Notes: generated by a model from the letters alone, not told the origin. DNA of 64,000 bases from Selenomonadales bacterium (GCA_003150515.1 QALW01000044.1:5838-69837); one strand, 5' to 3'. Positions 24,583-62,343 are shown, numbered from the stretch's first letter. Numbers and translations are program-made.

Positions 24583-24914
24583 GTTTCTCCGCAGGCGCTT
24601 AAGCGCCTGCGGAGAAACAATAATGAGGCCGGCCTAGGCCGGCCGCTCTGTCCGCGGCCCATGTCCGCCGCGGACAGAGCTTTTATATAGAGCCCACCCG
24701 CGCCGCTGAGAGACGCTGGGAAGGAGCAGCGAACGGTGGCCGGGGGCGGGCGGGAAAGATAAAGGGCGCCGGGCGCAAATTATGCGCCCGGCGCCGTGCG
24801 GCTTAAGCCGCACACATTTTATGCCCCAACTGGCGCCAGAGGGTTTCCTCTGGCGCCAGTTGGGGCCGTCCGGCCATCAGCCGGACGCGGGTGGGTTAAG
24901 CCCCCGCATAAAAT
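24583..24914. repeat. array of seven back-to-back perfect or near-perfect hairpins plus dispersed-repeat modules
   Basis: Hairpins at 24583..24618, 24627..24644, 24645..24680, 24765..24795, 24796..24813, 24824..24865 and 24868..24886. An outer inverted repeat pairs 24816..24824 with 24906..24914. Confidence 0.9.
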
Positions 24915-25885: not shown

Positions 25886-26094
25886 GGCGCGCCCTCCTTT
25901 AAAGGGCGGGGCGGCGTTGTATTAATTAGGAAAGCAAAATTATACAGCGGGGGCTCTTGCCCGCCCGTTTTTTCTGCCTAACGGCCGAAAAAACAATAAT
26001 GAGGCCGTGCTTAGCACGGCCGGCAGTTCAGCTGCGCGCGGCCCATGTCCGCCGCGCGCAGCTGAACTGCTCTTTATATTTCCCGCCCGCCCCC
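25886..26094. repeat. dispersed-repeat copy: CCTTTAAAGG box, AACAATAATG module, short hairpin, long CCATGTCC-loop hairpin, CTTTATATTTCCCGCCCGCCCCC module
   Basis: Box at 25886..25916; hairpins at 26003..26021 and 26023..26070; tail module at 26071..26094. Confidence 0.9.
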
Positions 26095-26104
26095 TTTAGG
26101 CGTC

Positions 26105-33333: not shown

Positions 33334-34001
33334 TTTTTACCTCCATTTCGGCTCTCATAGGATGCCATATATTGGTTAGAATTATGTCAGCTTTTTTGGC
33401 ATGCGGGCGTGCCCGTCCCGCTGCCTGTGCTGATTTTATTTATTATATATCTTTCGCCGCTATTTCGCAAGCGGTTTTTGCCGTAAGTCCCGGAGAATGC
33501 CGCGAAGCGCGGGGCGCGGGCGGGGTTATGTAAAAAAAGGCGAGGAGAGCGGCCGGCGCGGTTTAGTGCCGGCCGCGCAGCCGGGAAGAGAGAATAAAGG
33601 ATGTAAAAATTTTTTGCTGGAGAGTAAGATGAATTTATTCGCCTGTCCCCGACGAAGGAGGGGACACAATTAAAGGGTGGGCGCCCCGCCCTCAATGTGG
33701 GCGCAGCTCATATCCATTCTCAGACAGGCTGTTTGCATATTTTTTCTTTTATATAATCTTCCCCTGTTTCGTTTGCGCCCATGCCCTTGGCCCTTGGGGC
33801 CGTCGGGCATATATATGTCTTCCCGCCCGCGCCCTGGCGCGTTTCCGGAGCTGCATGCAAAAATCCGAGGCACATTTTTCAGTATGCGCATACAAGCAAT
33901 GGTAGACTAATAATGAAACTAACGCCGTGTTCCGCGCATATAAGCGCCGGCGGGCTTAAATTAATATGCGGAGCTGTTGCCAGGCTGCCGTTTAAGGGGG
34001 T

Positions 34002-34490
34002 GTGCCTTTGCGAAAAAAGAAATTAGATACTCATATCAGTCCGCGGCTGAGCGAAATAAGCCAGGCTCGCTGCCGCGGCGCCACGAAAAAGGAAATAGCC
34101 GAGCTGCTGGGAATTTCTCTGGCGACTCTGAATAGGGCCCAGCGGGAGAATGAGGATTTGGCCCTTGCTCTCAGGCCGGTGCCTGCGCAGGAGATGGAAC
34201 GTGAAAAAATAAAAGAAGCGTTTCTTAAGCGCGCCTGCGGCTATATAGCCCGCGAAGAGGTGCGTGAGATGCGTGAAAATAAGCTGCCCGACGGCCGGGT
34301 GGAGCGTGAATTGGTATTGACAAAGCTGGTCAGCAAAGAGGTGCCGCCCGATCTTTCCGCCGCTAAATGGCTGCTGGAAAACGAGCAGAAGCGCGCGAAT
34401 CATGCTCAGCCTAATGAAATCGATTTGGATGAGGCGCTGGAAATGCTCCGGCTGCGCCAAAGGCTCTTAGAGCAAGCGGAGGAGGAATAA
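34002..34490 (+). CDS. terminase small subunit-like HTH protein
   Basis: HTH KKEIAELLGISLATLNRA and a KEVPPDLSAAKWLLENE motif typical of TerS proteins. Start is GTG at 34002 or TTG at 34008, which has better RBS spacing. Confidence 0.7.
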   Translation: MPLRKKKLDTHISPRLSEISQARCRGATKKEIAELLGISLATLNRAQRENEDLALALRPVPAQEMEREKIKEAFLKRACGYIAREEVREMRENKLPDGRVERELVLTKLVSKEVPPDLSAAKWLLENEQKRANHAQPNEIDLDEALEMLRLRQRLLEQAEEE

Positions 34491-34493
34491 TTT

Positions 34494-35909
34494 ATGGAGC
34501 GGGACGCCGTTTCGGCTATAGAACGCCTTATTAATCAAAACCCTCCTCTTTTTAAACTGGCCGGATATAACGCTCTGGGCAAGACTCATCAAAAGCAAAT
34601 GGAATTTCATAAATGCCTCAAGCGCAACCGCTGGGTGTTTGGAGGCAACCGCACGGGCAAAACTGAATGCGGGGCGGTAGAAGCGGTATGGTTCGCGCGC
34701 GGCAACCATCCGTATAGGGAGATTAATAAGCCCATGAACGGCTGGGTGGTCAGCCTTACCGGGGAGGTGCAGCGGGATGTGGCCCAGGCCAAGCTTTTAT
34801 CCTATCTTCCCCGAAACTGGATAGAGGAAATAGTAATGAAAAAAGGGCGCTCGGACAGCCCGGAAAACGGAATTATAGATTTTATAACTGTGCGCAGCGT
34901 GCACGGCGGGCTTTCCACTATAGGCTTTAAGAGCTGCGATCAGGGCCGGGGCAAATTCCAGGGCACATCCCAGGATTTCATCTGGTTTGACGAAGAGCCG
35001 CCCAGGGATATCTATGACGAATGCCGCATGAGGCTTCTGGACAGGCGGGGAGAAATTTGGGGCACAATGACTCCGCTTATGGGGCTGACATGGGTGCATG
35101 ACGATATATATATGAATTCGCGCTCCGATTCGGAGGTCTGGTATATAACGATGTCCTGGCAGGACAATCCCTTTTTAAATCCCGACGAAATCAGGCTTAT
35201 GGAAAGCGTGCTGCCCGACAGCGAGCTGGAAAGCCGGCAATACGGCAGGTTCCGCGCCGCAGGCGGCATGGTGTATCCCGAATTTGACGAGCGCGTGCAC
35301 TGCATAGAGCCATTTGACGTCCCGCCCGAATGGCAGAGCTGCATTTCAATAGATCCTGGTTTTGTCAATCCTCTCTCCGCTCACTGGTACGCCGTGGACG
35401 GAGACGGAAACATCTTTGTTATAGCCGAGCATTACGCCGCGGGGCTGTCGGCTGAGGAACACTGCCTGAGGATCAGGGAAATAAGCGAAAAACTGCATTG
35501 GAAGAAGCTTCCGTCGGGACATGTCCAGGCGCTGATGGACAGCGCCTGCCTGCAAAAGACTCTTTCAGGGCCCCGTTCCGTAGCCCAGCTTTTTTATGAG
35601 AACGGCGTAAGCGTGAATACGCGGGTGGATAAGAATGTTTGGACGGGCGTCCAGCGGGTTAAAAGCTATTTAACAAAGCGGGAGGGGCGTCCGGGCCTGT
35701 TTATCTTCAAAAACTGTCCCGAAATGATACGGGAAATAAAGGGATACCGTTACGGCGAGGGAGAAAGCCCCGTAAAAAAGGACGACCACGCTATGGACGA
35801 ATTACGGTATTACATTATGTCCAGGCCTGAGCCCGCCGTTTTTAAGCCGCCCCAAAGCAGTATTGTACAAAAGGATTTGCTGAGGCTTATGAAAAGACGC
35901 CGGCGCTGA
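34494..35909 (+). CDS. terminase large subunit
   Basis: Walker A GGNRTGKTECG, Walker B FIWFDEEP. Nuclease motifs IDPGFVNPLSAHWYAVD and DDHAMDELRYY. GAGGAGG RBS. Confidence 0.9.
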   Translation: MERDAVSAIERLINQNPPLFKLAGYNALGKTHQKQMEFHKCLKRNRWVFGGNRTGKTECGAVEAVWFARGNHPYREINKPMNGWVVSLTGEVQRDVAQAKLLSYLPRNWIEEIVMKKGRSDSPENGIIDFITVRSVHGGLSTIGFKSCDQGRGKFQGTSQDFIWFDEEPPRDIYDECRMRLLDRRGEIWGTMTPLMGLTWVHDDIYMNSRSDSEVWYITMSWQDNPFLNPDEIRLMESVLPDSELESRQYGRFRAAGGMVYPEFDERVHCIEPFDVPPEWQSCISIDPGFVNPLSAHWYAVDGDGNIFVIAEHYAAGLSAEEHCLRIREISEKLHWKKLPSGHVQALMDSACLQKTLSGPRSVAQLFYENGVSVNTRVDKNVWTGVQRVKSYLTKREGRPGLFIFKNCPEMIREIKGYRYGEGESPVKKDDHAMDELRYYIMSRPEPAVFKPPQSSIVQKDLLRLMKRRRR

Positions 35910-36193
35910 CGGGCCGAAAGAGTAATTGGCCGCGCTTGGAAAAAATATCGCCGGGCAAACGCTGAGACGCCCGGGGGCGCGGGCGGGCAGAGCCCTGGAG
36001 TTAAAATGGCGCATGTCCGCGCCATTTTAACTCCAGGGCTCGTAATATAAAAGGCGCGGTTAAAGGCTTTTGGGAAGCAGGTTTAATGCTTTTGCTGAGA
36101 AAACGGCGGAAGCAGACAAGCGTTTTGGCGCGCCGTTCCGCGGAACGCGGGACACAATTAAAGGGTGGGGCGCCCCCGCTCTAGAAAGAAAGG

Positions 36194-38080
36194 ATGATGG
36201 ATTTGTTTGATTCGGAAAAAGAGAAGGAGCAGGCCGAACAAAGACGAAAAAAACAGCTTTGCGCTATGGTCAGGGAGGAATTTGAGCGCCGCGCCGTGCA
36301 GCGCCGTCCATTCGAGCTTCAGTGGCAGCTCAATATGAATTTTATGCTGGGCAATCAGTATTACGACATAGCTCCCTTGTCGGGCGAGCTTTTTGAAACC
36401 GTTCAGGAATATCCCTGGCAGGAGCGGGAGGTGTATAACCATATAGCTCCCATAATGGAATCCCGCTTGGCCAAATTGACAAGAGTGCGTCCTCAGATGC
36501 TTGTCCGTCCGGCCACTTCAGACGAAGCGGACGTTCAGAGCGCAAAGGTATGCACGGCCTTGGTCAAATCCTGCTTTTCCAGGCTGGCCATGACTGATCA
36601 ATTGGACGAAGCGGCCATGTGGTCGGAAATTTGCGGCACGGTTTTTTATAAGAGCGTTTGGTCAGATTCAAAGGGCGTTCCGGTCGCGACTAATGAAAAC
36701 AGGCAGGTGCGTCAGGGAGACATAGAAACAAGCGTATGCCCGCCTTATGAAATATATCCTGATTCGCCCGGCCGCGAGGACGTGTCCAGATGTGAAAGCC
36801 TAATACATGCGCGGGCCTATTCTCCGGGCGAAGTAGAACGGCTCTGGGGCGTCAGGCCGGAGGGCGGCAAGGTCAGGGTTTACGGCGTTTCGGCTGAAAA
36901 CGGCAGCCTCATGCCCGGAACAGCCGAATTGGAGGATGGAGTCTTAGTAACTGAATACTATGAAATGCCCTCGGCGGAATATAAAAACGGCCGTCTGCTG
37001 ATAACCTGCGGAGATATGCTTCTATATGAAGGGGAACTGCCCTATCAGACGGGAGAAAATGGAGAGAGACGCGCTCCTTTTGTCCGGCAGGTCTCCCTTT
37101 CCCGTCCCGGCTGCTTCTGGGGCATGTCCATAATTGAACGCTGCATTCCTATTCAAAGGGCTTATAACGCCGTTAAAAACCGCAAGCATGAATTTCTCAA
37201 CAGAGCGGCGGTGGGAGTGCTGGCCGTGGAAGAGGGCTCGGTGGATTTGGAAAATCTCGAATTGGAAGGGCTGGCGCCCGGCAAACTGCTGGTTTACCGT
37301 CAGGGCAGCAATATTCCTGCGTTTTTGCCGGGAGGGAATCTGCCTGGCGAGTTTATTCAGGAAGAGGCCGAACTGCTTCAGGAATTTGAGATGATTTCGG
37401 GCGTGTCCGAGATGATGAGGCGCTCGTATGCCGGAGCTAATATAAGCAGCGGCACGGCGCTTTCCCTTTTAAGCGAGCAGGACGACACCAGGCTTTCAGT
37501 TACCGCCGAGCATATACGCTCGGCCATGCGTTCTCTGGCTAAAATCTGGCTGCGGCTGTATAAGCAGTTTGCTGGAAGCGCCCGCATAGACCGGGTAGTC
37601 GGGGATAACGGCCAGGTCAGCGCGCTCTATTGGAAGGCCAGCCAGATAACCAGCGACGACGTAGTGCATGAAACTGAGAACGAGCTTTCTCAGTCCTTGT
37701 CTCAGCGCAGGCAAATGATATTCGATTTGATAGCCAGAGGCATATTTACTTCGCCTCAGGGAGGCCTGAGCGAACGCACAAAGGCGCGCCTGCTCGGCAT
37801 GCTGGGCCTGGGCGACTGGGAAAACGCGGCGGATGTGCCTGAAATGCAGATGGAAAGGGCGCAGCGCGAGAATTTCCGCATGAGCGAGGGAGAAACGGCA
37901 GTAGTTGAAAATTACGACGACCATGAATTGCATGAATCAGAGCATATTAAATTTATGCTGTCCGAAAAATTTGAAGAACTGAGCGCTAAACGGCCTGATT
38001 GGGCCGCCCTGTTCAGGGAGCATTTAACGGAGCATCAGATTTTATTAAATGGAGGAATGCAGAATGCGGACGAATCTTAA
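36194..38080 (+). CDS. portal protein
   Basis: 628-aa ORF directly after TerL. Its size, acidic character and position are portal-like. No clip-motif check is possible by eye. Confidence 0.7.
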   Translation: MMDLFDSEKEKEQAEQRRKKQLCAMVREEFERRAVQRRPFELQWQLNMNFMLGNQYYDIAPLSGELFETVQEYPWQEREVYNHIAPIMESRLAKLTRVRPQMLVRPATSDEADVQSAKVCTALVKSCFSRLAMTDQLDEAAMWSEICGTVFYKSVWSDSKGVPVATNENRQVRQGDIETSVCPPYEIYPDSPGREDVSRCESLIHARAYSPGEVERLWGVRPEGGKVRVYGVSAENGSLMPGTAELEDGVLVTEYYEMPSAEYKNGRLLITCGDMLLYEGELPYQTGENGERRAPFVRQVSLSRPGCFWGMSIIERCIPIQRAYNAVKNRKHEFLNRAAVGVLAVEEGSVDLENLELEGLAPGKLLVYRQGSNIPAFLPGGNLPGEFIQEEAELLQEFEMISGVSEMMRRSYAGANISSGTALSLLSEQDDTRLSVTAEHIRSAMRSLAKIWLRLYKQFAGSARIDRVVGDNGQVSALYWKASQITSDDVVHETENELSQSLSQRRQMIFDLIARGIFTSPQGGLSERTKARLLGMLGLGDWENAADVPEMQMERAQRENFRMSEGETAVVENYDDHELHESEHIKFMLSEKFEELSAKRPDWAALFREHLTEHQILLNGGMQNADES

Positions 38081-38642
38081 TGGGGAACAACCCGCCAATA
38101 GCGCGGGCTCCGATATAATGCCTGACAAATTCAAAAGCGGGGAACAACTTCTTAAAGCCTATGAGATGCTGGAAGCCGCGTTTACGCGCAAAAGCCAGAG
38201 GCTTAAGGAGCTCCTTGAAGAAAATGCCAGGCTCAAGGGGGAACTTATGGAGAAACAGCCGGATTTAAGCGGTATGATTGAGGATTTTAAGGCTTATCCG
38301 GAGGGCGCGCAATATGCGCCCGGGCTTTCGGCTGTTCTTCAGAGCGAGCCCAATCTTACGCCGGCCGGGCTGCTTGCGGCTCTGGCGCGCGTAATCCGAT
38401 GCGAGTGCGTTCCGCGCGAGCAGCTTTTACAAGACCGCGAATTTGTAGAAAAATATGTTCTTACAAATGAGGATATAACAGAATATATTCTGCGGAAATA
38501 TCTTGGCGGGCTGCTGCGCGGAGAAACGCCCCGCAGCATAAGCGGCGCGGGCGGCTTTATGCCTGCCTGCGAACGCAGGCGCGCTTCTTCTATTGAGGAA
38601 GCGGGCAAAATGGCGGCGCAGAGCTTCAGCGGCAGGCGCTGA
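38064..38642 (+). CDS. probable scaffolding protein
   Basis: 192 aa, coiled-coil-rich (KSQRLKELLEENARLKGELMEK), located between portal and capsid. The ATG has a GGAGGA RBS and overlaps the portal 3' end. Confidence 0.45.
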   Translation: MRTNLNGEQPANSAGSDIMPDKFKSGEQLLKAYEMLEAAFTRKSQRLKELLEENARLKGELMEKQPDLSGMIEDFKAYPEGAQYAPGLSAVLQSEPNLTPAGLLAALARVIRCECVPREQLLQDREFVEKYVLTNEDITEYILRKYLGGLLRGETPRSISGAGGFMPACERRRASSIEEAGKMAAQSFSGRR

Positions 38643-38788
38643 CCAATTAAATAGGGTTTATACCGGGGCGCGGCACAAAGCGCGCATGAGTATGCAATGA
38701 TGCCGTTGACAATACGGTTTAAAGAGCTTTTATCTGCTTCGCGCCCCTATATAAGCCTGATAAAATAATTAACGGAGGAGATAAAAAT

Positions 38789-39979
38789 ATGCAGGCAGTA
38801 ACTTTAACAAGCGCTGAAAACGCCCTTAAGTCATTTTATCTTGACGTAGTGGCGCATCAGCTTAATACGGAAACCAATCCCTTGTATAATAAGATTAAGC
38901 AGTCGGAGAGCAATGTGTTCGGCAAGGAGGTGCGCGCCGCGGCATGTTACGGCGTAAACGGCGGCATAGCGGCCGGAACGGAAACCGGAGATCTTCCCGA
39001 AGCATATTCAAATAACTATGTGTCCTTTGTAAGCACGCTTAAGAATCTGTACGGTCAAATTGAAATCTCGGATAAGGCTATTCGTGCCTCTGAAAACAGC
39101 GCGGGAGCGTTTGTGAATCTGCTTAACGCCGAGATGGAGGGGCTTCTGAGAGCGGCTAAATTTAATTTTGGGCGCATGCTTTTTGGAGACGGGACGGGCG
39201 CTCTTGCAAAGGTGACTGAGGCTGCGAGCGCTAAGAGCGCTATTGTGGTAGACAGCGCGCGCAATCTGACCGAAGGCATGGTAATAGATATTTATGCTAC
39301 GTCCGAAACTGCTTCGGCTACGGCGAGCGGCTGCCGGATTCTCGGAATTGCTGTGGAAAAATCCGAAAGCACTTCCAAAATAGTCGTTACTCTGGACACT
39401 ACTGTTACGGTAGCGGCTAACAGCATAGTGTATCTTTGCGGCAGCAAGGGCAATGAAATCACCGGCTTGGCTTCAATTTTCTCTGCAACCGGCACCCTTT
39501 ACGGCTTGGATAAATCAAGCAATAAATGGATGATTCCTTATATTGGTGATAATACGGGCACAATAAGCGACGCTAAAATACAAAAGGCCATTGACGCGGC
39601 CGAAGAGCGCGCGGGCAGCCGAATAGATACGGCTGTTTGCTCTTATGGCGTCAGAAGAGCTTATGCGAGCGTTCTGGAGACTAATAAGCGCAATGTGAAT
39701 ACGGTTGAATTGGAGGGCGGCTTTAGGGCTATATCCTATGCCGGCATTCCTATAATCGCCGACAGATTTGCGCCTGCGGGCACTATGTATCTGCTGGACA
39801 GCAAGGATTTCGCGCTTCATCAGCTTTGCGATTGGCGCTGGCTGGAGGGTGAGAACGGCAATATACTCCGTCAGGTACCGGGCAAGGCGGTATTTAACGC
39901 TACTTTGGTTAAATATGCCGAGCTTATGTGCACTCGTCCGGGAGGACAGGCTGCGCTTACGGGCATAACTGAAGGCTGA
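38789..39979 (+). CDS. major capsid protein (HK97-fold type)
   Basis: 396 aa with a strong GGAGGAG RBS and the typical position after the scaffold. The sequence pattern (NLYGQIEISDKAIRASE...NAEMEGLLRAAKFNFGRMLFGDG) resembles phage coat proteins. Confidence 0.72.
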   Translation: MQAVTLTSAENALKSFYLDVVAHQLNTETNPLYNKIKQSESNVFGKEVRAAACYGVNGGIAAGTETGDLPEAYSNNYVSFVSTLKNLYGQIEISDKAIRASENSAGAFVNLLNAEMEGLLRAAKFNFGRMLFGDGTGALAKVTEAASAKSAIVVDSARNLTEGMVIDIYATSETASATASGCRILGIAVEKSESTSKIVVTLDTTVTVAANSIVYLCGSKGNEITGLASIFSATGTLYGLDKSSNKWMIPYIGDNTGTISDAKIQKAIDAAEERAGSRIDTAVCSYGVRRAYASVLETNKRNVNTVELEGGFRAISYAGIPIIADRFAPAGTMYLLDSKDFALHQLCDWRWLEGENGNILRQVPGKAVFNATLVKYAELMCTRPGGQAALTGITEG

Positions 39980-40378
39980 TTGACTGATTGAGCTGCGGTG
40001 GGGACGGGGAAGGCCGTTTAGGGCGCATTTGCGCCCTAAACGGCCGGGGTTTATATAATTTGGGCGCGGGGAAGAGTTCTGGGGGCTGATAAAAGCCTGT
40101 AAAATATCAGAAGCAGGGCGGGTTGAGGCGGCTGGGGGCGCCCTCCTTAAAGGGGTGGGAGTCCCCGTTGCTGATGCCGCGGGGGCCCGCCCGCCCTTCC
40201 CGGTCTGGCAATAAGCATTTAAAAAATGCTTATTGCCAGACCGGGAAGCAAGGAGGCCGGCTGACGCCGGCCGGGCGGATGGGGAAAGCAAAAGCTTTCC
40301 CCATCCGCCCTTTTATATAATTCCCCAGGGGCGCTTTAGGCGCCCCTCCCCCGCGCATAAAAGAAAGGGAGAGATCAA

Positions 40379-40690
40379 ATGGCTAAAGAGGGAGAGTATT
40401 GTATGGAATTAAGTCCTGAATTTCGGGACGTGTTTTATATTGCCGGTCGTATTAAGGAGCTGGATCCAGCTTATTATATTATGTTCAACAGAAACAGCGG
40501 CCGTTATCAGGTGCACGCCGGAACTGGGCGGGATACCCTTCAGCTTGATTTGCCCTTTGATATCCTGGACAGCCGTGCTCTTAGTTATGTCCGGCAGACG
40601 GCCGTAACGCGCATTAATGAATATTTGGCTGAAATAGACAGGGCGAATCTTATTAATGAGCGCGCGGCGCTTAAACGAGGAGGAATCTAA
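40379..40690 (+). CDS. hypothetical protein (phage block)
   Basis: 103-aa ORF with an AAGGGAGAG RBS. An alternative ATG lies 8 codons downstream. Confidence 0.55.
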   Translation: MAKEGEYCMELSPEFRDVFYIAGRIKELDPAYYIMFNRNSGRYQVHAGTGRDTLQLDLPFDILDSRALSYVRQTAVTRINEYLAEIDRANLINERAALKRGGI

Positions 40691-41260
40691 ATGAAATTAA
40701 GAGAATTGGCTGCGGGCTGCGCCGTGCTTTTGGGAATAGACGACGGCTTTCTGCGCGAGGGCGGAGTTATGACCGAGGACGAGCAGCTTGTATATGAACG
40801 GCTTAAAAGCGCGCTGAATTCAGTATATACGTTTATCGCAAAGGATTATTGCCGGCCTCTTTATACTGAAGTAATAACAACGGATGCGAAATCGGGCGTG
40901 CTTATAAGCGAATTGAGCAAAAGCTATATGCAGTTTCATTCGGCTAAAAATGAAAAGAGCTGTCCTGTGGCGGGCAGAGAATATCCCGATTATGTACGCT
41001 TCAGCGTGCGCCCGGGCAGCAAGGTGAGCGTAACGTATTATTATCTTCCGCCTCGCCTGGAGGATTTGGACGACGAGGTGGAGCTGCCCGAAAAGGATGT
41101 GGCTGCCGAAGCCTATCTTTACGGCGCTTTAAGCCTGTATTATACCACCGAGGGCCGTCATACCGAGGCTGCGGCCTGGGACAGAAGATATAAAAGCGTT
41201 CTGGACGGAACAGAAAGAATGCGCGGCGAGCATCGCCTTCCCAGCCGGAGGTGGTCTTGA
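40691..41260 (+). CDS. hypothetical protein, size and position of a head-tail adaptor
   Basis: 189 aa with a GAGGAGG RBS, abutting the stop of the previous gene. Confidence 0.6.
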   Translation: MKLRELAAGCAVLLGIDDGFLREGGVMTEDEQLVYERLKSALNSVYTFIAKDYCRPLYTEVITTDAKSGVLISELSKSYMQFHSAKNEKSCPVAGREYPDYVRFSVRPGSKVSVTYYYLPPRLEDLDDEVELPEKDVAAEAYLYGALSLYYTTEGRHTEAAAWDRRYKSVLDGTERMRGEHRLPSRRWS

Positions 41261-42741
41261 TGGCGTGGTATCGCAGCCTGCCTGAATATGAGCAGGCGGA
41301 CGAATACAGTTTTTATATCAGCGATTTTAAGGGCGGCATCAATATGAGCGAGGACGACCAGAATATGAGCCTGAGCGAAAGCCCGCTGGCTTATAATGTT
41401 TCGGGCAAGGACGGCAGTCTTAAGAGGTGCGAAGGATACGGACGCGCCTATAAGCATGAGGATATGCTTAATAGAGAAATTCTGATTCCCGAATTGCCGT
41501 CGTCCGGTACGGGCAGGCTGCTTATTTACAGAGTCAATACTGAAACTCAGCCGCGCGAGCATTTGGCGTATGTGGATAATCTGGGGCTGTATAAATGCGT
41601 TCTTAACGGTTCAGAGCTTAAATGGCAGATGGTGAATACTACTGATTTCAGTGCTGTGGAATATTATGTAAATTACCGCAAGGATTCGGGCGACTGTCTG
41701 GTATTTGGTCCGGGCGTAGAGGACAATAATATGTATCTATGGAGTAAATTTACACAGCCGCCCTCTCCTGTTGAGACCGCGCCCCAATTAAGCAGCGCTG
41801 TGGTTCATTATGAGCGCATGTTTGGGGTTGGAGATCCGGAGCATGTAAACCGCATATGGTTTTCCGCGCAGTTTGACCCTACGGATTTTACAGTTTCTCT
41901 TGACGCGGGCGGCTATATAGACGTTATGGGGGATAAAGGCCGGGCGCTTAAGGTGATTAGCTTTTCGGACAGTATTTTTGTGTTCTGGCAGTACGGAATA
42001 ACCAGGGTAAAAGCCTATAATTATCAGAGCGAATTTACCGTAAGCGATATATACAGCTGCGACAGCGAAATACTCAAGGACAGCGTGTGCCTATGCTCAG
42101 ATCAGATTATATTTGCCGCTAAGGACGGCGTTTATGCCTTTGACGGTTACAGCGTACAGCGAATCAGCGATAAAATCTCAGGCATAATTAACGAGGGCCT
42201 GAAGGCTTCGGGCGAATGCTCGGCGTATTTCCGCGGCAAATATTATTTGTCTGTGCAGAGCAGCTATCTAGCCGAGGTGGAGGGCAGCCTGATGCTGGAA
42301 TATGATACGGCTTCAAATAAATGGCGTATTTTTAAGGGCCAGCCCATACGGCAGCTTCTGGTCTATCATGACGAGGGACGCGAACGCCTGCTGCTTGTGG
42401 GGAACAATCACGTCTATGAAATGGACGGCTCTCAAACTTTCGGCGGCATGCCCATAAGCGCAAGATGGGATATGCCCTTAAGCAGCCTGGGCAAGCCTCA
42501 TTTAGTCAAGAATATCCGCGAGCTGCTTATAACGGCTGAGGGCGAGGGGCTTTTAAGGCTGAAAATGACTACTGAAAGCGCCCGAATTGAAAGGACAATC
42601 CGCTTGAGGGATACGCGCAGGATATATAAGGTGCCTCTGCGAATCAGCGGGAAGCTGCTCCAGCTGAGCATAGAGAATGTGAGCGGCAATAATTTCACCG
42701 TCAGCAATCCCATGGTGATATATACCGCGCTCAGGGGGTGA
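41260..42741 (+). CDS. hypothetical structural protein (candidate tail-tube/nozzle-like)
   Basis: 493 aa. The ATG overlaps the upstream TGA (TGATG) and has a GGAGGTGG RBS. The sequence is rich in beta-strand, propeller-like repeats. Confidence 0.6.
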   Translation: MAWYRSLPEYEQADEYSFYISDFKGGINMSEDDQNMSLSESPLAYNVSGKDGSLKRCEGYGRAYKHEDMLNREILIPELPSSGTGRLLIYRVNTETQPREHLAYVDNLGLYKCVLNGSELKWQMVNTTDFSAVEYYVNYRKDSGDCLVFGPGVEDNNMYLWSKFTQPPSPVETAPQLSSAVVHYERMFGVGDPEHVNRIWFSAQFDPTDFTVSLDAGGYIDVMGDKGRALKVISFSDSIFVFWQYGITRVKAYNYQSEFTVSDIYSCDSEILKDSVCLCSDQIIFAAKDGVYAFDGYSVQRISDKISGIINEGLKASGECSAYFRGKYYLSVQSSYLAEVEGSLMLEYDTASNKWRIFKGQPIRQLLVYHDEGRERLLLVGNNHVYEMDGSQTFGGMPISARWDMPLSSLGKPHLVKNIRELLITAEGEGLLRLKMTTESARIERTIRLRDTRRIYKVPLRISGKLLQLSIENVSGNNFTVSNPMVIYTALRG

Positions 42742-42748
42742 GAGCTTT

Positions 42749-43168
42749 ATGACGAGCAATGCGGTAACGCGCAATACCAAGCGTATTTTAATGCTTAATG
42801 AGGAGCTCAATGAACAGAGAGGCATGATAAACGCCTTTTTGAATCCCCGCAGCTATTCGATAGCCTCGGCTTCCCTTTTGTCCACCGAAAGCGAGCTTTT
42901 CAGCCTTAACGCCAGCGGCGCGTATGCGCTTTTCGGCTTTTTGAGGCTGCAATTCAATTCCGCTTCGGGACAAATTATTTCGGTCGTATTCCGGGACGCC
43001 CAGGACGGCGCGCTGAGCTCGTGCGTCAGGCAGCTTTCCAGCAACGGAGTTCAGAGCCTGGATATACCTTTCTGCATATATCCCGGAAAGGGACAGGTAA
43101 AAATAAACGCTTCAGCTTCCGCTTCGTGCAGCATATCGGGGGCGGAGCTTTTTATTCTTGGCATGTAA
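42749..43168 (+). CDS. hypothetical protein (phage block)
   Basis: 139-aa ORF with a GGGGGTGAG RBS. Confidence 0.55.
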   Translation: MTSNAVTRNTKRILMLNEELNEQRGMINAFLNPRSYSIASASLLSTESELFSLNASGAYALFGFLRLQFNSASGQIISVVFRDAQDGALSSCVRQLSSNGVQSLDIPFCIYPGKGQVKINASASASCSISGAELFILGM

Positions 43169-43231
43169 TAAGCGCGTCCCCCCGCGCGCTCTTAATTAAT
43201 ATTTCCGGGGGGAGAAAGCAGGGATTATTAA

Positions 43232-44491
43232 ATGAGCAAAAGCAAACAAGGCCAGTATATTGTCCAGCGCGGAGATACTGTAGAAAGCATAGCTAAAAAG
43301 CTGGGCATGTCTCCCTTTGCTCTGGTCAGCCAGAATCCGGGAATCCGTTCTCAGCGGCTGACGCAGGGCCAGAGTTTGGTATATTATAGCCCGTCCTCCC
43401 AGGCTAATACGAGCGGGCAGTCCTCTTCTTCAGACGCCGCCCAAAACGCTTTGAATATTTTAAACGGCGCTCTGGGCGCCGGAGGAGGCGCATTGAGCAA
43501 TCTGTCTCTTAAGGCCGATACATTGGAAGAAGCGCTTCAGGCGCTTAAGAGAGAGGCGGGGCTTTCCGGTTTGAGCGATGAGGAGGCGTATGAAAGAGCG
43601 CAGCAGTTCAGGCGGCAAAACCTTCTTGAACAGGCTTCTCAGGCCAATCCGGGCAAGGTTTATGATATAGGCAAGCTGCTGGATAACGCCGGTTACGGCC
43701 TTTCGGATTCGGCAAGACAGATTATAAGCAATATTACAGGCATGGATTATTCGGGCGCTGCGGCCGGCTCTGAGGCAAATCTCAGCAGCAGGGACAGAGC
43801 GCTTCTGGCGCTGGGCGAATTGATTGATTTAACTAATCTTTCCCCTGTCAAAGGCGAGCAGATAGATGAAAACGCCCTCTATCGGCAGGCTTATGCCCAA
43901 GCGGAGAATGATTATGCAAATCGTATTCTCAACGCCGTCAATTCCCTTAATAATAAGCGCAGAAATAATCAGGACAAAAAGGAAACTCTTCAGGAGGATT
44001 ATTTAAAGGAAATACAGGAATTGGAGGCGCAGGCGGAGGAGGACAGCGCCGACGCATTGCAGGACAGCATAAAGAGAGGCACGGCGCGTTCCAGTATTCT
44101 GGACGGACTGCAAGCGGAAATAGAGCAAAACAGCCAGGACAGCGCGCTTCAGCTTGAAACTGACCTTAACAATACTCTTTCCCGCCTGGACAGGGAATTG
44201 AAGGATATTGAAAGCGCGGGTAAGGCTACGCTGGATTTGCTGGAAAAGAATAAGCAGATTGCGGCGCAGAAAGAATATGAAAAGCAGCTTGCCAATATTC
44301 AGAAGGAGCAGGAAAAGCTTTCCAGCATAAACGCCGGCTTGACAGGCACGCTGCTCACTCCCAGCGACGCCGTCAAGCAGCTTAATAAGCTGGACAGGCA
44401 GCAGTCTCTGGATTATCTTAAAAAGAATGAAAAGAAACTGCGCAGCCTTTGGGGCAGCTCCTATGACAGCGTTCTTAAGCAATATTCTTAA
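43232..44491 (+). CDS. LysM-domain protein with a long coiled-coil C-terminal region
   Basis: N-terminal LysM YIVQRGDTVESIAKKLGMSPFALVSQNPGIRSQRLTQGQSLVYY. The rest is Q/E/K/L-rich with no catalytic motif seen. Confidence 0.75.
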   Translation: MSKSKQGQYIVQRGDTVESIAKKLGMSPFALVSQNPGIRSQRLTQGQSLVYYSPSSQANTSGQSSSSDAAQNALNILNGALGAGGGALSNLSLKADTLEEALQALKREAGLSGLSDEEAYERAQQFRRQNLLEQASQANPGKVYDIGKLLDNAGYGLSDSARQIISNITGMDYSGAAAGSEANLSSRDRALLALGELIDLTNLSPVKGEQIDENALYRQAYAQAENDYANRILNAVNSLNNKRRNNQDKKETLQEDYLKEIQELEAQAEEDSADALQDSIKRGTARSSILDGLQAEIEQNSQDSALQLETDLNNTLSRLDRELKDIESAGKATLDLLEKNKQIAAQKEYEKQLANIQKEQEKLSSINAGLTGTLLTPSDAVKQLNKLDRQQSLDYLKKNEKKLRSLWGSSYDSVLKQYS

Positions 44492-44504
44492 ACAGCATAG
44501 TCTT

Positions 44505-44533
44505 AGTCCGGGAATATTTCCCGGACTTTTTTT
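44505..44533 (+). terminator. intrinsic terminator closing the phage-derived block
   Basis: AGTCCGGGAA / TTCCCGGACT stem followed by T7. Confidence 0.85.
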
Positions 44534-44552
44534 AATTTTAACGGAAAAATGT

Positions 44553-44706: not shown

Positions 44707-45075
44707 ATGCTCAAGCGCTATCTTTTTTATCTTATTCGCTGGCAGTTAAGCACGCCCATTCTTACTCTTGTGCTCACCTGGCTTTCGGATATGGACACTC
44801 TGCTTGCTACTATTATAGCCAATCTTATAGGAGGGCTTATATTTTTCTGGGTGGACAGTTTTATTTTTAAAACCATGGCACGCAGCCCGCTTTGGGAAAT
44901 CCGTGAAAACGTTAAATGCGCCGACTGCGGGAAAACAGGACGTGGGTACCGCGTGGCCGAATGGTTTGGATATAACCGGGTTCAGGATAAAAACCCTGAA
45001 TTTAGATGCGAGGAATGCCGCGAACGCAAGCTGGAGGAGATAAGCAAGCGCATAGGCAAAAAGGCGCAGTCCTGA
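44707..45075 (+). CDS. small membrane protein (2 TM, GtrA-like N-part) with a C-terminal CxxC...CxxC zinc ribbon
   Basis: 122 aa; hydrophobic segments STPILTLVLTWL and LLATIIANLIGGLIFFWV; CADCGK...CEECRER. Confidence 0.6.
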   Translation: MLKRYLFYLIRWQLSTPILTLVLTWLSDMDTLLATIIANLIGGLIFFWVDSFIFKTMARSPLWEIRENVKCADCGKTGRGYRVAEWFGYNRVQDKNPEFRCEECRERKLEEISKRIGKKAQS

Positions 45076-45141: not shown

Positions 45142-45293
45142 CGTCCGGCTTTTAGAGCCGGACGGCCATATAATTGGCCCGGTAGAAAATCTACCGGGCC
45201 AATTATATGGCGGAAAAGGAGCGCGGCCTTTGGAGCCGCGCGGCGCACGCGCCCTGCGGGGCGCGCACGCCCTTTATATTTCCCGCCCGCCCC
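45142..45293. repeat. dispersed-repeat copy (hairpin stack plus CTTTATATTTCCCGCCCGCCCC module)
   Basis: Hairpins at 45142..45164, 45166..45210 (20-bp perfect stem) and 45221..45241, and an imperfect one at 45242..45270. Tail module at 45271..45293. Confidence 0.88.
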
Positions 45294-45354
45294 TGGCAGG
45301 CGTTTGTTTTTCTGCCCGGCTTTTCATATTCAAAATTCCTATTTTACAAACAGC

Positions 45355-58150: not shown

Positions 58151-59041
58151 ATGGATTTTACGGGCAAAAACATAGTGATTACCGGCGCTTCTTCGGGCAT
58201 AGGCCTGGCGTCGGCGCGCCTGCTGGCGCAAAAGGGCGGGAACGTCTACGCGCTCTCCCGCCGAGCCAGGACGGGTGAGAGGACTAATTGCGGACGGGGA
58301 CGGATTATAGAAGTAGGCTGCGACGTGACGGACAGCCGTTCGGTTAGAGAAGCGTTTGAATATATTTTTTCGGACGCAGAAAATATTTACGGCCTGGTAA
58401 ACTGCGCGGGCACGGGCATAGCCGGAGCCGTGGAGGAGACTTCGGAGGAAGAACTCTCCGGCCAGCTGGACTGCAATCTTTACGGAACGCTGCGCGCTCT
58501 CAGGGAGGCGCTGGGCAGGATGCGGAAGCAGGGAGAGGGCCGGGTTGTAAATATGAGCTCGGTCGGCGGGCTGATAGGCCTGCCCTTTCAAGGCATGTAC
58601 AGCGCCTCAAAATTCGCGCTGGAGGGCATGACCGAAGCGCTGAGGAACGAATTGCGCCCCTTTGGAATCAGGGTTTGCTTAATAGAGCCGGGCGACGTGC
58701 GCACGGGATTTACCCGCAGCCGCCGTTATACGGCTCGGACGCGGGAGAGCGAGGTATACCGGCGCGAGCTTTGCAGCGCCGTAAACGCAATGTCGGTCAG
58801 CGAGGAAAAGGGCATGCCCCCCGAAAAGGTGGCGCGGCTGGTTTTGAGGGCGCTGAGCATGAAAAATCCGCCGGTGAGAATGGCTGCCGGAGGCGGCTAT
58901 AAGGCGCTTTGCTTTATAAAACGCTTTTTGCCCGACAGGCTGGTGAGCTGGGTTGTTTTTAAAATGTACTGTACGCGCAAAAGCCTGGGCTCGGAATACT
59001 GGGATTTTGAAAAGGACGTGCTGGGCGTGAAAAAAGGCTGA
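58151..59041 (+). CDS. SDR-family oxidoreductase
   Basis: ITGASSGIGLA, NMSSVGG, YSASKFALEG. Confidence 0.88.
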   Translation: MDFTGKNIVITGASSGIGLASARLLAQKGGNVYALSRRARTGERTNCGRGRIIEVGCDVTDSRSVREAFEYIFSDAENIYGLVNCAGTGIAGAVEETSEEELSGQLDCNLYGTLRALREALGRMRKQGEGRVVNMSSVGGLIGLPFQGMYSASKFALEGMTEALRNELRPFGIRVCLIEPGDVRTGFTRSRRYTARTRESEVYRRELCSAVNAMSVSEEKGMPPEKVARLVLRALSMKNPPVRMAAGGGYKALCFIKRFLPDRLVSWVVFKMYCTRKSLGSEYWDFEKDVLGVKKG

Positions 59042-59280
59042 ATTTGGCCTTGCATACAGCCAAAAATGAATAAACGGCTCATGAACGGTTAATAAATTGT
59101 AAATATTTACTATAAAGCCGGGATTGAGAAATAAAAGCCTTGCGCGGCGGAGGCGGCGGGGATATTATATGTGAGAAGCGCGCCCTTTTATTTGCGGGCA
59201 CGGGCCTAAAACGGCGGGCCTTTGTTCCCGGCCCGGGGCGTTTTTAAAAAATATAAGAATTTGAATGGGAGCTGATAGTT

Positions 59281-60141
59281 ATGTTCAGGCTTATAACGGA
59301 TATGTGCTGCGATCTGACCAAGGAGATGTGCGAGGAATTTGGGATTCTGGCCGTTCCCATGAGCTATACTATGGACGGCAGGGATTTTTTGCATACGCTG
59401 GAGGACGGAAATCCGCATGAATTTTATCAGGCGCTGAGAAACGGCAGCATAAGCAAAACCAGTCAGATTAACAGCGAGGATTTTATAGAATTTTTCACGC
59501 CCTTCCTCGAGCAGGGCGAGGATATTCTATATTTAGCTTTTTCTTCGGGGCTGAGCGGCACCTATCAAAGCGCCTGCATTGCGGCGGAGGAATTAAAGAA
59601 ACGCTTTAGCGAACGCACGGTTGCGGTTGTGGATTCGCTGGCGGCTTCCATGGGGCTGGGGCTTATGGCGTATTACGCCTCATGCCGCATTAAAGAGGGC
59701 ATGAATCTGGCGGAGACGGTTTCCTGGCTGGAGAGCAATAAATTAAAGGTTAACCATTGGTTTACAGTGGACGATCTGCACTTTTTGCGCAGAGGAGGAA
59801 GAGTTACGGGCGCGGCGGCTTTCGTGGGCAGCCTTTTATCCATAAAGCCCGTTCTGCATACGGACGACGAGGGCAAATTAATACCCATGGAGAAAACCAG
59901 GGGACGCGCTAAAGCGCTGCGCGGGCTGGCGGAAAAATTAGAGCAGCAGGGAGAGAGTATTAACGGACAGACCATATTTATCAGCCACGGGGACTGCCTG
60001 GAGGACGCCGAGCATGTGCGCGGGCTTATAGCTGAAAAATATCCAGACTGCAAATTCAGAATGAATTATATAGGGCCGGTAATCGGCTCTCATTCAGGGC
60101 CGGGCACGGTGGCTGTGTTTTTTATGGGCGTTAAGCGCTAG
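59281..60141 (+). CDS. DegV-family fatty-acid-binding protein
   Basis: 286 aa; the motifs ITDMCCDLTKEM...TSQIN...VVDSLAASMGLG...IGPVIGSHSGPG are typical of DegV. Confidence 0.88.
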   Translation: MFRLITDMCCDLTKEMCEEFGILAVPMSYTMDGRDFLHTLEDGNPHEFYQALRNGSISKTSQINSEDFIEFFTPFLEQGEDILYLAFSSGLSGTYQSACIAAEELKKRFSERTVAVVDSLAASMGLGLMAYYASCRIKEGMNLAETVSWLESNKLKVNHWFTVDDLHFLRRGGRVTGAAAFVGSLLSIKPVLHTDDEGKLIPMEKTRGRAKALRGLAEKLEQQGESINGQTIFISHGDCLEDAEHVRGLIAEKYPDCKFRMNYIGPVIGSHSGPGTVAVFFMGVKR

Positions 60142-60286
60142 CCGGCGGGGCTTTTGATTCTGTTGCCACGGGGCAGCGGACATTCTGGCAAAAACTCATT
60201 GTAAAAGGCGGCTGATGAGAGCAATCTCATCCGCCGCCTTGCTGTCTTTGCGCCGTTTAAAAGCATTTATAACGACTTATCTTGCA

Positions 60287-61930
60287 TTATTTATTCACAA
60301 CCATAAGCATTCCTTCCGCTCCCAGCCTGTTCTCAGGTTCTAAAAGCAGCCCCTTTTTAATTAATTCTTCTATGATGCCTGACAGAATTCTAATCCCGGC
60401 GATTAGCTGAGTGTAAATTTGGTATTCGCTGATTAGATGTTCGGGAATATGCTCTCTCATAAATTGCGAAAGCTCTTCCGCTATCTCTTCAACGAGCTCT
60501 CCCGCTTTATTATTCAGTTTAAAGGAAAGATTGTAGAAGTCCATATCATCTTTTTTATCAATTACGATGATCCTTGGTTCAAGCAAATGCCCCTTTTTGC
60601 GTAAATAACCGCACTCAATGGCCTTCGCGGCAATTTCTTTTTCGCTTTCAGTCAGGTCGTCAATGTTTAATCCGCCTATTGCCCGTATCAGCATTAACAG
60701 CATATCGTCATGCGCGATATTATATCCGCAGTAAAAATGCTTATCAAGCCTTTCTCCATAGATATTGGAAACAAAAACAGATTTATAACCGCCTATTTGA
60801 GTTGCATCGATGCCATCGCTTCCGTAAAAGCCGAAGTTTGGGTTCTGCTCGTCTGTAAAAGCTACTGCTACGCATGAAAAGCTTCTGTTTATCGGAATAA
60901 TATCACGGAAATATTTTTCCATAATAACCTTGTTGATTCTATCCTGAAAATCCCAAACCGTTCTTGAAATTAAAGCCCACAATATAAAATTTAAATGGTT
61001 TTGTTGGCTCAAATAAGGGAATTCAAGAATTTCTTTTTCATTCCGTTTTAATTGGTCTATTATTAATTTGCAGTATTCAGGAAGACGCTTTTCGTATATC
61101 CTGTTCGCTTGATTATATTCGCTGTAATCAACAAGGAGGATATTCAAAGCATATTTTTCATTATCAAGCTTGCGGAGCATACCATAGCTGCCGTTTTCTC
61201 CTCTGCATTGAATTTCCAGTTCTTCTTCAACGTATGGCATGGGGATACATAACTCATCCGATAATTCTTTTGCGGATTTTGGCTTATCCTTGCAAAGATA
61301 AATAAGATTCTGCGAAAGCATGCGTTCGGCCTTGCTCCTGGGATCATTGCCGCATGGATTGCCCGTTCCGGATATGGCCAGTCTTATTGGCTTTAAAGAT
61401 AAATTTCGCTTATTCATTGTTTCAACCTCTTTTCTAATTATATTCCGGGCGGAAAATAAACGTTGTTTTACAGAATTTTCGGAGATATTAAGGTATTGAG
61501 CAATATCTTTGATTTTTATTTCATCAATATAATACATAACCATAACGTCCCGATATGCTTTTGATAAAAAAGAGATTTCCCTGAATATCGTCTTTAAGTG
61601 TTCAGTTTCTGCTATTTGTTCAAATAATTCCTCAATATCATCTGTTTTTGATAATAAAGACAGTTCGGTGTTTTCTATACTGATATCTTTTTTTCGTTTA
61701 TTTCTTTTGTCACAGAAATCAGCATAGACTCTGCGTGCTATTGACCACGCGAATGCATAAAAATCATTGATTTCATTTTGTTTATGTATCGCTGAAATTA
61801 CAGCGATAATAATGTTTGAACACAAATCCTCTGCGTCGAAGGAAGTACTGCACCTTCTGTATGCAAAGCCATAGATTTTTTCAAGAAAATCACTATTATC
61901 TATCAATTCAAAAACTTCATCTATTTTCAT
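60287..61930 (-). CDS. sigma-70-family (ECF-like) sigma factor with a roughly 370-aa C-terminal extension of unknown function
   Basis: Region 2-like DAEDLCSNIIIAVISAI...FYAFAWSIARRVYADF. Region 4 HTH IKDIAQYLNISENSVKQRLFSARNIIRKE ends near aa 175, and the remainder has no recognised motif. The gene is visibly more AT-rich than its neighbours. Confidence 0.8.
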   Translation of the reverse strand: MKIDEVFELIDNSDFLEKIYGFAYRRCSTSFDAEDLCSNIIIAVISAIHKQNEINDFYAFAWSIARRVYADFCDKRNKRKKDISIENTELSLLSKTDDIEELFEQIAETEHLKTIFREISFLSKAYRDVMVMYYIDEIKIKDIAQYLNISENSVKQRLFSARNIIRKEVETMNKRNLSLKPIRLAISGTGNPCGNDPRSKAERMLSQNLIYLCKDKPKSAKELSDELCIPMPYVEEELEIQCRGENGSYGMLRKLDNEKYALNILLVDYSEYNQANRIYEKRLPEYCKLIIDQLKRNEKEILEFPYLSQQNHLNFILWALISRTVWDFQDRINKVIMEKYFRDIIPINRSFSCVAVAFTDEQNPNFGFYGSDGIDATQIGGYKSVFVSNIYGERLDKHFYCGYNIAHDDMLLMLIRAIGGLNIDDLTESEKEIAAKAIECGYLRKKGHLLEPRIIVIDKKDDMDFYNLSFKLNNKAGELVEEIAEELSQFMREHIPEHLISEYQIYTQLIAGIRILSGIIEELIKKGLLLEPENRLGAEGMLMVVNK

Positions 61931-62210
61931 TTGTTGTCTTCCTGTCTTCCGTTTGCAAACATCTTACGCATATATAGTCGAAGAAAATACGAATTGGTTA
62001 GATGGTTTGCAAAATAAATTTCTCACGTTTCAAAATTTTGTCCTGCGCCGCTGAAGCTGCTGTCAATTGTTTGCGGGAATAAAGATAAATTCCTGCTGTT
62101 CGGGAGATAAGCGAATATGGCAGGATTATAGCATATAAATTAAGTATAGCAAAAGCGGAGCTTAAGAAGCTTTAAAAAAGGCGGAGGAAAAATAAAATTG
62201 AACTTAGCTA

Positions 62211-62239: not shown

Positions 62240-62343
62240 ATATATGAGTATTAATTTTGCCTCCGCCCCTTGAACGGGGCGGGCGTTCTATTTATATTAT
62301 AATCAGAACAGTCCTATTAGATCTAGGACAGAAAGGGATGGCC

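Follow-up and report, generated by a model that had tools for sequence, protein, structure and literature searches.

The locus described here raises the question of why a set of phage head and neck genes should stand by itself among the housekeeping genes of a gut bacterium. It lies at positions 34002-44491 of a 64-kb stretch from a Selenomonadales bacterium (GCA_003150515.1, QALW01000044.1:5838-69837), which was analysed as a whole and is called the window in the following; with extended flanks of ~8.5 kb beyond the window ends, ~72 kb were available for scanning. The window's HtpG and Hom proteins have cluster mates at 90% identity or more that are labelled Christensenellaceae bacterium. The answer we favour is that the block is probably a domesticated, podovirus-derived particle module resembling a gene transfer agent (GTA), i.e. 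a 'viriform', which an uncultured gut member of the Christensenellaceae carries as a fixed part of its chromosome. Domestication itself, which a sequence-only reading of the same DNA had preferred over a decayed prophage, is strongly supported by the intactness of the genes, by the selection acting on them and by their vertical inheritance.

ORF calling located ten intact open reading frames (ORFs) in the block, all on the + strand and with the coordinates given by that reading, which had also guessed the adaptor and the nozzle correctly; small corrections concern the first and the eighth ORF. The first gene (34002..34490) encodes the small terminase TerS (phrog_309, E 4.4e-16), which gives weak matches to HTH_23 and HTH_24 and has an N-terminal helix-turn-helix (HTH) at about residues 21-49; its true start is probably the TTG at 34008, resulting in 160 amino acids (aa). 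It is followed by the large terminase TerL (34494..35909; Terminase_6N, 1.6e-13; phrog_2, 8.8e-32) and by a portal protein of the P22/SU10 type (36194..38080; P22_portal, 2e-22; SU10_portal, 4e-8; phrog_156, 3.6e-37; PF16510/PF23899). Between the portal and the major capsid protein (MCP), a 197-aa protein (38049..38642) is encoded, which is acidic and helical with a coiled-coil segment. None of the family scans returned a match for it; given its position, charge and helicity and its membership in a conserved cluster seen in 78 of 78 loci, it is the probable scaffolding protein. The MCP (38789..39979) has the HK97 fold of the podovirus type (NF033394 capsid_maj_Podo, 4.8e-80, 269 bits; phrog_14242, 4e-62; SU10_MCP PF17236) and more than 6000 homologs.

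The second half of the block encodes neck and tail components. A conserved 103-aa protein (40379..40690), for which neither the family scans nor a sequence search of the PDB gave a match, is a candidate for a head-completion or connector protein; homologs occupy the equivalent position in 17 of 77 genome loci and in 30 of 41 IMG/VR loci. The next gene (40691..41260) codes for a head-to-tail adaptor of the SU10 type with 189 aa; its match to SU10_adaptor (PF24175, E 9.4e-6) scores 26.6 bits, which is 0.4 bits below the Pfam cut-off of 27, and the PDB sequence search found no match. The eighth ORF (41251..42741) comprises 496 aa when read from its GTG, in place of the 493 aa given by gene callers and by the sequence-only reading. 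Its AlphaFold2 (AF2) model (predicted local distance difference test score, pLDDT, 81; predicted template modelling score, pTM, 0.80) is a beta-propeller, for which Foldseek detected tail nozzles of the P22 gp10 type in the PDB with E-values from 1.8e-20 to 2e-13 and template modelling (TM) scores of 0.57-0.68. The best matches are the Pa223 tail (9nwi_Y; E 1.8e-20, TM 0.67) and VP1 (8zkk_O; 1.4e-14), followed by P22 gp10 (8eap_D; 2e-13), SU10 (7z4b) and T7 gp12. Judged from this model, the protein is a podovirus tail nozzle, and with its identity taken from structure the order of the genes mirrors the P22 order 3-2-1-8-5-4-10-26.

Two further proteins complete the block. A beta-rich protein of 139 aa (42749..43168), without a match in the family scans or the PDB sequence search, is a plug or needle candidate from its position after the nozzle; it evolves fast, with 54% identity in the sister species and homologs only among the window's immediate relatives. 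The last gene (43232..44491) encodes 419 aa with a LysM domain (3.9e-8), a weak match to DUF7934 and a coiled coil. A hidden Markov model built from the family of c7/DUF7934 proteins, which are the products of the module's last gene in other lineages, matches it at 2.6e-18. The AF2 model of this protein is poor (pLDDT 61); in it, LysM occupies residues 5-53 and is followed by a disordered linker, and long helices span residues 213-372. The match to the PDB is confined to the LysM domain. The protein is a candidate for a peptidoglycan-binding virion component. The block is closed by an intrinsic terminator on the + strand (44505..44534), made up of a hairpin at 44505-44527 with a 10-bp stem including six GC pairs and a subsequent TTTTTTT.

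With a P22/SU10-type portal, an HK97-fold MCP, an adaptor and a gp10-type nozzle, the block has the make-up of a podovirus virion module; it is a phage-derived set of DNA-packaging, capsid and short-tail genes of the P22/SU10-like type. The likeness to P22 and SU10 extends to gene order, portal, MCP, adaptor and gp10-fold nozzle. In contrast to these phages, the module has no tailspike or fibre, no recognisable ejection proteins and no lysis, replication or lysogeny genes, and its proteins share at most 28% identity with deposited phages; the closest of these, which have Actinobacteria as hosts, reach only 25-28% for the MCP.

The surroundings of the block are those of a chromosome. On the left, htpG, hom, coaX and the gene of an energy-coupling factor (ECF) S-component lie on the minus strand; on the right follow the genes of a 122-aa membrane/Zn-ribbon protein, ldh, malic enzyme, an SH3 protein and a CotH protein. 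The remainder of the window holds genes of central metabolism and translation, and the ~8.5 kb past the window ends are likewise housekeeping. Scans of all sizeable ORFs against Pfam, PHROG and NCBIfam detected no integrase, repressor, replication, holin, endolysin, tape-measure or fibre gene in ~72 kb; no other phage-like gene lies in the window or in the ~8.5 kb outside it, and no tailspike, fibre or other receptor-binding protein was found in block or window. No tRNA was found in the window, and no att-like repeat flanks the block, the longest exact word common to both flanks having 12 nt. Rfam families were not detected in the window at the gathering threshold, and a permissive threshold yielded generic hairpin noise only. 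The features of an intact temperate prophage, namely integrase, repressor, replication and lysis modules and att sites, are thus absent; what is found is a chromosomal structural cluster free of replication, integration and lysogeny functions, as is typical of GTAs. The sequence-only reading had described these flanks, the strong terminator and the missing gene classes in the same way, and its by-eye statement that the composition of the block is host-like is borne out by numbers: the GC content is 0.514 for the block and 0.523 for the host, the GC content at third codon positions is 0.571 and 0.593, the codon-usage correlation is 0.90 between block and host and 0.92 between host halves, and the tetranucleotide correlation is 0.94 compared with 0.96-0.975 for host-to-host controls. 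The composition is ameliorated towards the host, slightly less close than in these controls.

Presence of the block in a single strain only, which had been listed as a finding that would speak against domestication, is not what we see. Among indexed metagenome assemblies, 311 blocks contain the exact MCP sequence; five loci, which stand for 17 more similar ones, agree with the window in their flanks and have all of its ten genes at 98-100% identity. In a sister species (locus L091) the MCP is 86% identical, the left flank is kept and all ten genes are intact; the right flank departs from the window only past the gene of the ~120-aa membrane protein. In a second sister species, the MCP is 90% identical and the left flank is kept as well; the contig stops just after the MCP gene. 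Nor is selection relaxed: compared with L091, the approximate ratios of nonsynonymous to synonymous substitution rates (dN/dS) are 0.05-0.22 for the eight module genes with estimable dS and 0.07-0.19 for the neighbouring genes hom, coaX and ECF-S, dN being similar in both groups. The module is under purifying selection like its housekeeping neighbours.

In order to see how far the module extends beyond these species, an alignment-based distribution scan was performed in which each GTDB species was represented by a single genome. A relative is encoded in at least 591 of these genomes, mostly Christensenellales, and the module stands alone in them; the best 80 are mostly labelled as Christensenellaceae, Borkfalkia, Christensenella or unclassified gut Clostridia. 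The records of five module-bearing metagenome-assembled genomes (MAGs; L015, L017, L019, L056, L083) name 'uncultured Acidiphilium sp.' or 'Corallococcus sp.' as the source; as the gene content is gut-Clostridia-like, mislabelling or contamination of these bins is probable. ORF clustering and profile rescans across these loci gave one architecture for the family. In its 5' part, the regulator-like c9, the secreted c8 (on the opposite strand), TerL, a TerS-like protein of ~100 aa, portal, scaffold and MCP are encoded; in its 3' part, these are followed by sometimes the 103-aa protein, the adaptor, the nozzle, sometimes c14/c48 and the DUF7934 protein, after which housekeeping genes resume.

A gene was counted as intact if a single ORF covered at least 85% of the model, and the denominators are the assessable species loci. 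Portal and adaptor were present and intact in all 73 loci; the MCP was present in 84 of 84 loci and intact in 83, TerL was present in 62 of 65 and intact in all 62, and the nozzle was present in 69 of 69 and intact in 65. Across the family, the intactness of core genes is ~95-100% of assessable loci. Disrupted relatives exist and are rare. The only split MCP among the 84 species loci, which also answers the question of frameshifted copies raised beforehand, is a degraded copy (L080:9983-11200) with ORFs of 242 and 152 aa; the rest of this module and the adjoining holins are intact. At three loci (L136, 11400-20300; L120; L143), the module is broken directly after the MCP gene by an insert that contains two DNA methyltransferases, a large ATPase-like protein and a LexA/UmuD-like protein and that, judging from these genes, resembles a defence or restriction-modification island. 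A prophage remnant without function, as yet undecayed, would account for such disrupted relatives and for a truncated phage gene set lacking autonomy functions; it is hard to reconcile with ten of ten intact ORFs, dN/dS values (0.05-0.22) equal to those of the housekeeping neighbours, an intactness of 95-100% over ~60-80 species loci, an order-wide family with conserved gene order, and an ameliorated composition. We consider a remnant very unlikely and give this explanation next to no weight.

The relatives occupy four recurrent chromosomal contexts, which are ispG-polC-rimP-nusA, RNase J, the unannotated clusters c13/46/77, and yabP-yqfD-phoH-ybeY. The proximity of some relatives to gin or yabP-yqfD could point to a link with sporulation, which is probably a coincidence; other clades lie near ispG-nusA or RNase J. 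A nearest-neighbour/flank-class test was used in place of noisy pairwise correlations of co-divergence: in 31 of 32 classifiable loci, the relative with the nearest MCP shares the chromosomal context (permutation mean 7.7, maximum 19). The capsid tree thus follows genome position, which argues for vertical inheritance with rare relocations, unlike what would be expected of a mobile phage. Vertical inheritance combined with purifying selection across a host clade is a further property that the module shares with GTAs.

Matches in IMG/VR are mostly module-only fragments of 4-19 kb, and the IMG/VR pipelines label the module as viral. A few larger contigs with an MCP of ~49% identity resemble real phages. 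Among these, L128 (IMGVR_UViG_2875135583_000001, 47.9 kb) and L145 (a contig of 64 kb) encode a Hoc-like decoration protein and, on either side of a related nozzle, additional genes of the tail region; they are candidates for free-living relatives of the ancestor of the domesticated module. The existence of such phages and the viral labels would also suit a helper-dependent element, comparable to a capsid-forming satellite, that makes its own heads and nozzle and depends on a phage, either co-resident or infecting, for fibres, lysis and induction. Fibre and lysis genes are indeed absent from the window, the HTH of TerS could recognise a specific pac site, and capsid-forming phage-inducible chromosomal islands (cf-PICIs) likewise possess TerS, TerL, portal, capsid and connector of their own and no full tail. 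However, cf-PICIs are mobile, carry integrase, att sites and replication and regulatory modules, and use the tails of helper siphoviruses; at this locus, there is no integrase, no att repeat, no replication initiator or primase and no helper-responsive regulator. Moreover, the element keeps its place in the chromosome and is inherited vertically in hundreds of species; a satellite would benefit only from movement, yet the phylogeny tracks the host context. We therefore regard this alternative as decidedly unlikely and retain the domesticated module as the preferred explanation.

Within the family, the clade of the window (this species, L091, L093, L006 and L011) is the only one that has TerS upstream of TerL and lacks c8 and c9. 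In the other 112 loci, TerS lies downstream of TerL, and the TerS-like proteins have ~100 aa without an HTH; they align to residues 63-160 of the window TerS only, and consequently do not contain its N-terminal HTH. A similar HTH is present in the regulator c9 (52% over 25 aa, E 1e-4), and c9 itself (e.g. L050:3986-4462) is similar to phage transcriptional regulators (phrog_36, 9e-7). Because of this resemblance, and because c9 is missing from the window lineage, with its TerS upstream of TerL, the sequences suggest a possible fusion of regulator and TerS in this lineage. Other lineages have kept lysis genes nearby: a holin gene (phrog_297, 9e-12) occurs within 16 of the 145 fetched loci, and nine of these also carry a BhlA/UviB-like gene (phrog_2429, 6e-13) that lies downstream of the module and is directly followed by the holin. 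Since holins are linked to the module in some relatives, lysis belongs to the system in some lineages.

The closest precedent is FpGTA of Faecalibacterium prausnitzii (Borodovich et al., Nat Commun 2026, PMC12946183; preprint 2024), which its authors called the first podovirus-like GTA-like element. Its operon I (10.5 kb; RCH50844-RCH50853; CP030777, 2536737-2546346) consists of ten ORFs for TerS, TerL, portal, scaffold, MCP and conserved hypothetical proteins; among the latter are a nozzle annotated from PDB entry 8eap and, as last protein, a coiled-coil 'TolA-like' product that is abundant in the particles (PMC12946183). Operon II is unlinked (5.5 kb, ~125 kb away) and encodes fibres, a receptor-binding protein, a holin and an endolysin; the particles measure ~40 nm, contain 8.4-8.9 kb of host DNA and show no visible tails (PMC12946183). 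Delivery of the packaged DNA to recipients was not shown for FpGTA, and a function other than transfer was left open by its authors (PMC12946183). The module in the window agrees with operon I in size (~10.5 kb), in its ten ORFs and, gene by gene, in layout. Both are stand-alone in the chromosome of gut Clostridia, lack replication and lysogeny genes and are near-ubiquitous in their host group, both nozzles are assigned to P22 gp10 (8eap), and the abundant last-gene product of FpGTA is the positional counterpart of the LysM/DUF7934 protein.

There are also differences. The host of FpGTA belongs to the Oscillospirales, the host of the window module to the Christensenellales; in FpGTA, the gene at the scaffold position is annotated as Prp-like, TerS lacks a DNA-binding domain whereas the window TerS has its N-terminal HTH, and the last protein is 'TolA-like', whereas LysM is present here. 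An equivalent of operon II was not found in the ~72 kb of window and flanks, compared with the ~125 kb that separate the two FpGTA operons. Podovirus-like GTA-like elements of gut Clostridia are therefore already known from FpGTA; the Christensenellales family behind the present locus is large and apparently undescribed, and our literature search found no other paper on such elements in Christensenellales.

Two less closely related systems help to place the module. RcGTA of the Alphaproteobacteria is likewise a domesticated head and packaging cluster that is inherited vertically over an order-level clade, is under purifying selection and lacks replication and integration genes; in RcGTA-type systems, accessory lysis and fibre genes are often found at other loci. 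RcGTA is siphovirus-like, with tape-measure and tail-tube genes and an MCP from another HK97 lineage, whereas the module is podovirus-like with adaptor and nozzle only; moreover, no counterpart of the regulators CtrA, GafA and others was identified here. PBSX of Bacillus subtilis is a chromosomally fixed, phage-derived particle system in Bacillota, too, and packages host DNA; in contrast to the module, it is myovirus-like with a contractile tail and has its own lysis cassette and repressor in one locus of ~28 kb.

Based on established podovirus assembly and on the FpGTA precedent, a working mode of the particle can be proposed. A host signal would trigger transcription of the operon, and the conserved upstream leader and intergenic hairpins described below would probably tune expression level and stoichiometry. 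Portal, scaffold and MCP would form a procapsid, into which TerS and TerL would load double-stranded DNA by a headful mechanism; because the locus has no excision or replication functions, the cargo would mostly be host chromosome. Adaptor, nozzle and probably the 139-aa protein would then seal the portal as a stub tail, and the LysM/DUF7934 protein would be a virion component that binds peptidoglycan. Release would need lysis genes, and attachment may need fibre genes; as these are not in the 64-kb window, another locus presumably supplies them, in the manner of operon II of FpGTA.

A domesticated particle could also serve a purpose other than transfer, such as PBSX-like killing or lysis, controlled release of DNA or another use of DNA-filled capsids, with no productive delivery. 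The evidence of conservation applies to such a particle in the same way, the authors of FpGTA leave a function of this kind open for their element, no fibre or receptor-binding gene is linked to the module in the window lineage, and the LysM protein could target cell walls rather than support delivery. On the other hand, TerS and TerL are intact across the family, which indicates that DNA packaging itself is under selection, and a complete channel of portal, adaptor and nozzle is an apparatus for DNA ejection. We consider a non-transfer function unlikely and keep to the GTA-like reading, against which several points have to be weighed nonetheless. Firstly, genes for lysis or receptor binding were not found within ~72 kb. 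Secondly, the MCP of FpGTA is annotated as a member of the N4-gp56 family, whereas the MCP of the window belongs to NCBIfam capsid_maj_Podo; among 111 diverse MCPs (window and 110 relatives), none matched the N4-gp56 model and all matched NF033394. With differing MCP families, FpGTA and the window module may be independent domestications or only distantly related. Thirdly, the HTH on the window TerS, judged from sequence and unlike the TerS of RcGTA and FpGTA, makes site-specific packaging conceivable. Fourthly, the pairwise correlations of co-divergence are positive but noisy, and only moderate where divergence ranges are narrow, and the dN/dS values of 0.05-0.22 are approximate because dS is near saturation (1-2) between the available pairs. 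Finally, expression, particle formation, random packaging of host DNA, release and transfer are inferred; what the sequences show directly is the identity of the genes, the lack of functions for autonomy, the intactness and purifying selection, the vertical inheritance and the wide distribution.

The non-coding parts of the block are conserved in a peculiar manner. Between the divergent ECF-S gene and TerS, a region of the + strand (33334..34001) keeps 75% identity across three species, although their synonymous sites are close to saturation. Within this region, a near-invariant block of ~70 nt lies upstream of TerS (33644-33705), in which a hairpin is followed by ACACAATTAAAGGGTGGGCGCCCCGCCCTC, and the minus strand has a promoter-like site for the ECF-S gene (33470-33442). 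A paralogous element of ~60 nt (36125-36181) abuts the ribosome-binding site of the portal gene; both elements consist of a hairpin followed by ACACAATTAAAGGGTGGGGCGCCCC and are near-invariant in the three species. Their core motif TTAAAGGGYGGG has 6 pattern matches in the window, compared with 0.34 expected by chance; it also occurs at 90, 25899 and 52368, and a looser match, TAAAAGGACGGG, is located at 19377.

The spacer between TerL and portal (35910..36193, +) comprises a GC box, a perfect 23-bp hairpin (35990-36041), a TATAAA box and the conserved element 36125-36181. In the spacer between the MCP gene and that of the 103-aa protein (39980..40378, +), three perfect hairpins (40012-40045, 40196-40248, 40273-40310) are accompanied by GC boxes and TATAAA boxes. 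The long perfect hairpins of the two spacers occupy equivalent positions in the three species and differ from one species to the next: the stems are wholly different between the sister species (window, L091, L093) yet perfectly paired, and they are flanked by conserved GC boxes (GGGGCGCGGGCGGG) and TATAAA boxes. The same syntax is found elsewhere in the window at 24823-24866, 26023-26103 and 45165-45303, and a unit of GC box and ATATAAA without hairpin at 8350, 26068 and 45268. The perfect hairpins could represent a genome-wide family of structured intergenic elements. The sequence-only reading had stated that host-specific hairpin repeats colonised the gaps of the block; the repeats are there, and the picture of colonisation is only partly right, as the elements keep their positions across species, which makes them old, and possibly functional, and not newly arrived. 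The intergenic elements could set transcript stoichiometry or bind a regulator. The TerL-portal spacer of the sister species has 1045 nt (L091:6357-7400) as opposed to 284 nt in the window, the extra ~760 nt being a non-coding insert. In a search for promoters, the top k-mer upstream of TerL in 82 loci, TTTTTCATA, is the reverse complement of the start of the divergent c8 gene, the matches of a sigma-70 scan were not above the shuffled expectation, and a GGCAC-N-CATA-like motif seen by eye upstream of the window TerS is not convincingly a sigma-54 or sporulation sigma site.

Next to the terminator, the gene of the 122-aa protein (44707..45075, +) deserves mention. The protein has one strong transmembrane segment and CxxC...CxxC motifs, and the family scans gave no informative match for it; a strong promoter-like site of the gene (TTGCAT-18-TATAAT) was recognised by eye. 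In the sister L091, the gene still adjoins the module (89% aa identity), and the genes beyond differ. The protein may be an accessory of the module, perhaps holin-like, or a mere neighbour.

Some further observations concern parts of the window remote from the block. On the minus strand, a 1349-aa ORF (348-4397) encodes an entire carbamoyl-phosphate synthase large subunit that continues into a diaminopimelate epimerase (DapF) domain at the C-terminus; gene calling on a further metagenome contig (L146) gave the same 1349-aa fusion. Between glnA and the gene of a GtrII-like glucosyltransferase, four tandem copies of a 45-46-nt unit (AAAGGG..GCGCCTGAAATGAAAGAGGGCAGGAGGCTTGCG) are located at 7516-7708. 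The region 59000-63000 has a low GC content of 0.38-0.46, compared with about 0.51 elsewhere, and contains on the minus strand (60287-61930) the gene of a 547-aa protein with an N-terminal sigma-70 domain of the extracytoplasmic function type and a long C-terminal extension.

What does the module mean for its hosts? In Christensenellaceae MAGs, namely HGM11616 sp900761075 and QANA01 sp019420265, GTA-like packaging has been observed as read peaks of virus-like particles at 4.1 and 6.3 kb, lengths below the 10.5 kb of the module, without an assigned locus, and many signals of this kind still lack one (PMC12946183). Extending our reading from this locus to the order, we tentatively suggest, and with less confidence than for the locus itself, that Christensenellales possess an order-wide, vertically inherited, podovirus-derived GTA family, which was domesticated independently of FpGTA and is the source of the 4-6 kb Christensenellaceae packaging in human faecal viromes. 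If this is true, it would be among the most widespread GTA families outside the Alphaproteobacteria, and its putative LysM/DUF7934 virion protein may take the place of fibres in the binding of Gram-positive cell walls. For virome analysis it matters that virome and prophage-prediction pipelines call such modules 'viral', as is the case for dozens of fragments in IMG/VR. The module is at the same time a natural system for studying how a podovirus is reduced to a host-controlled particle. The Christensenellaceae are a heritable, health-associated family of the gut. GTA gene clusters are known for very few lineages, and the window provides a ten-gene candidate locus for this family; if active, it would constitute a major, previously unaccounted route of DNA exchange in gut Clostridia.

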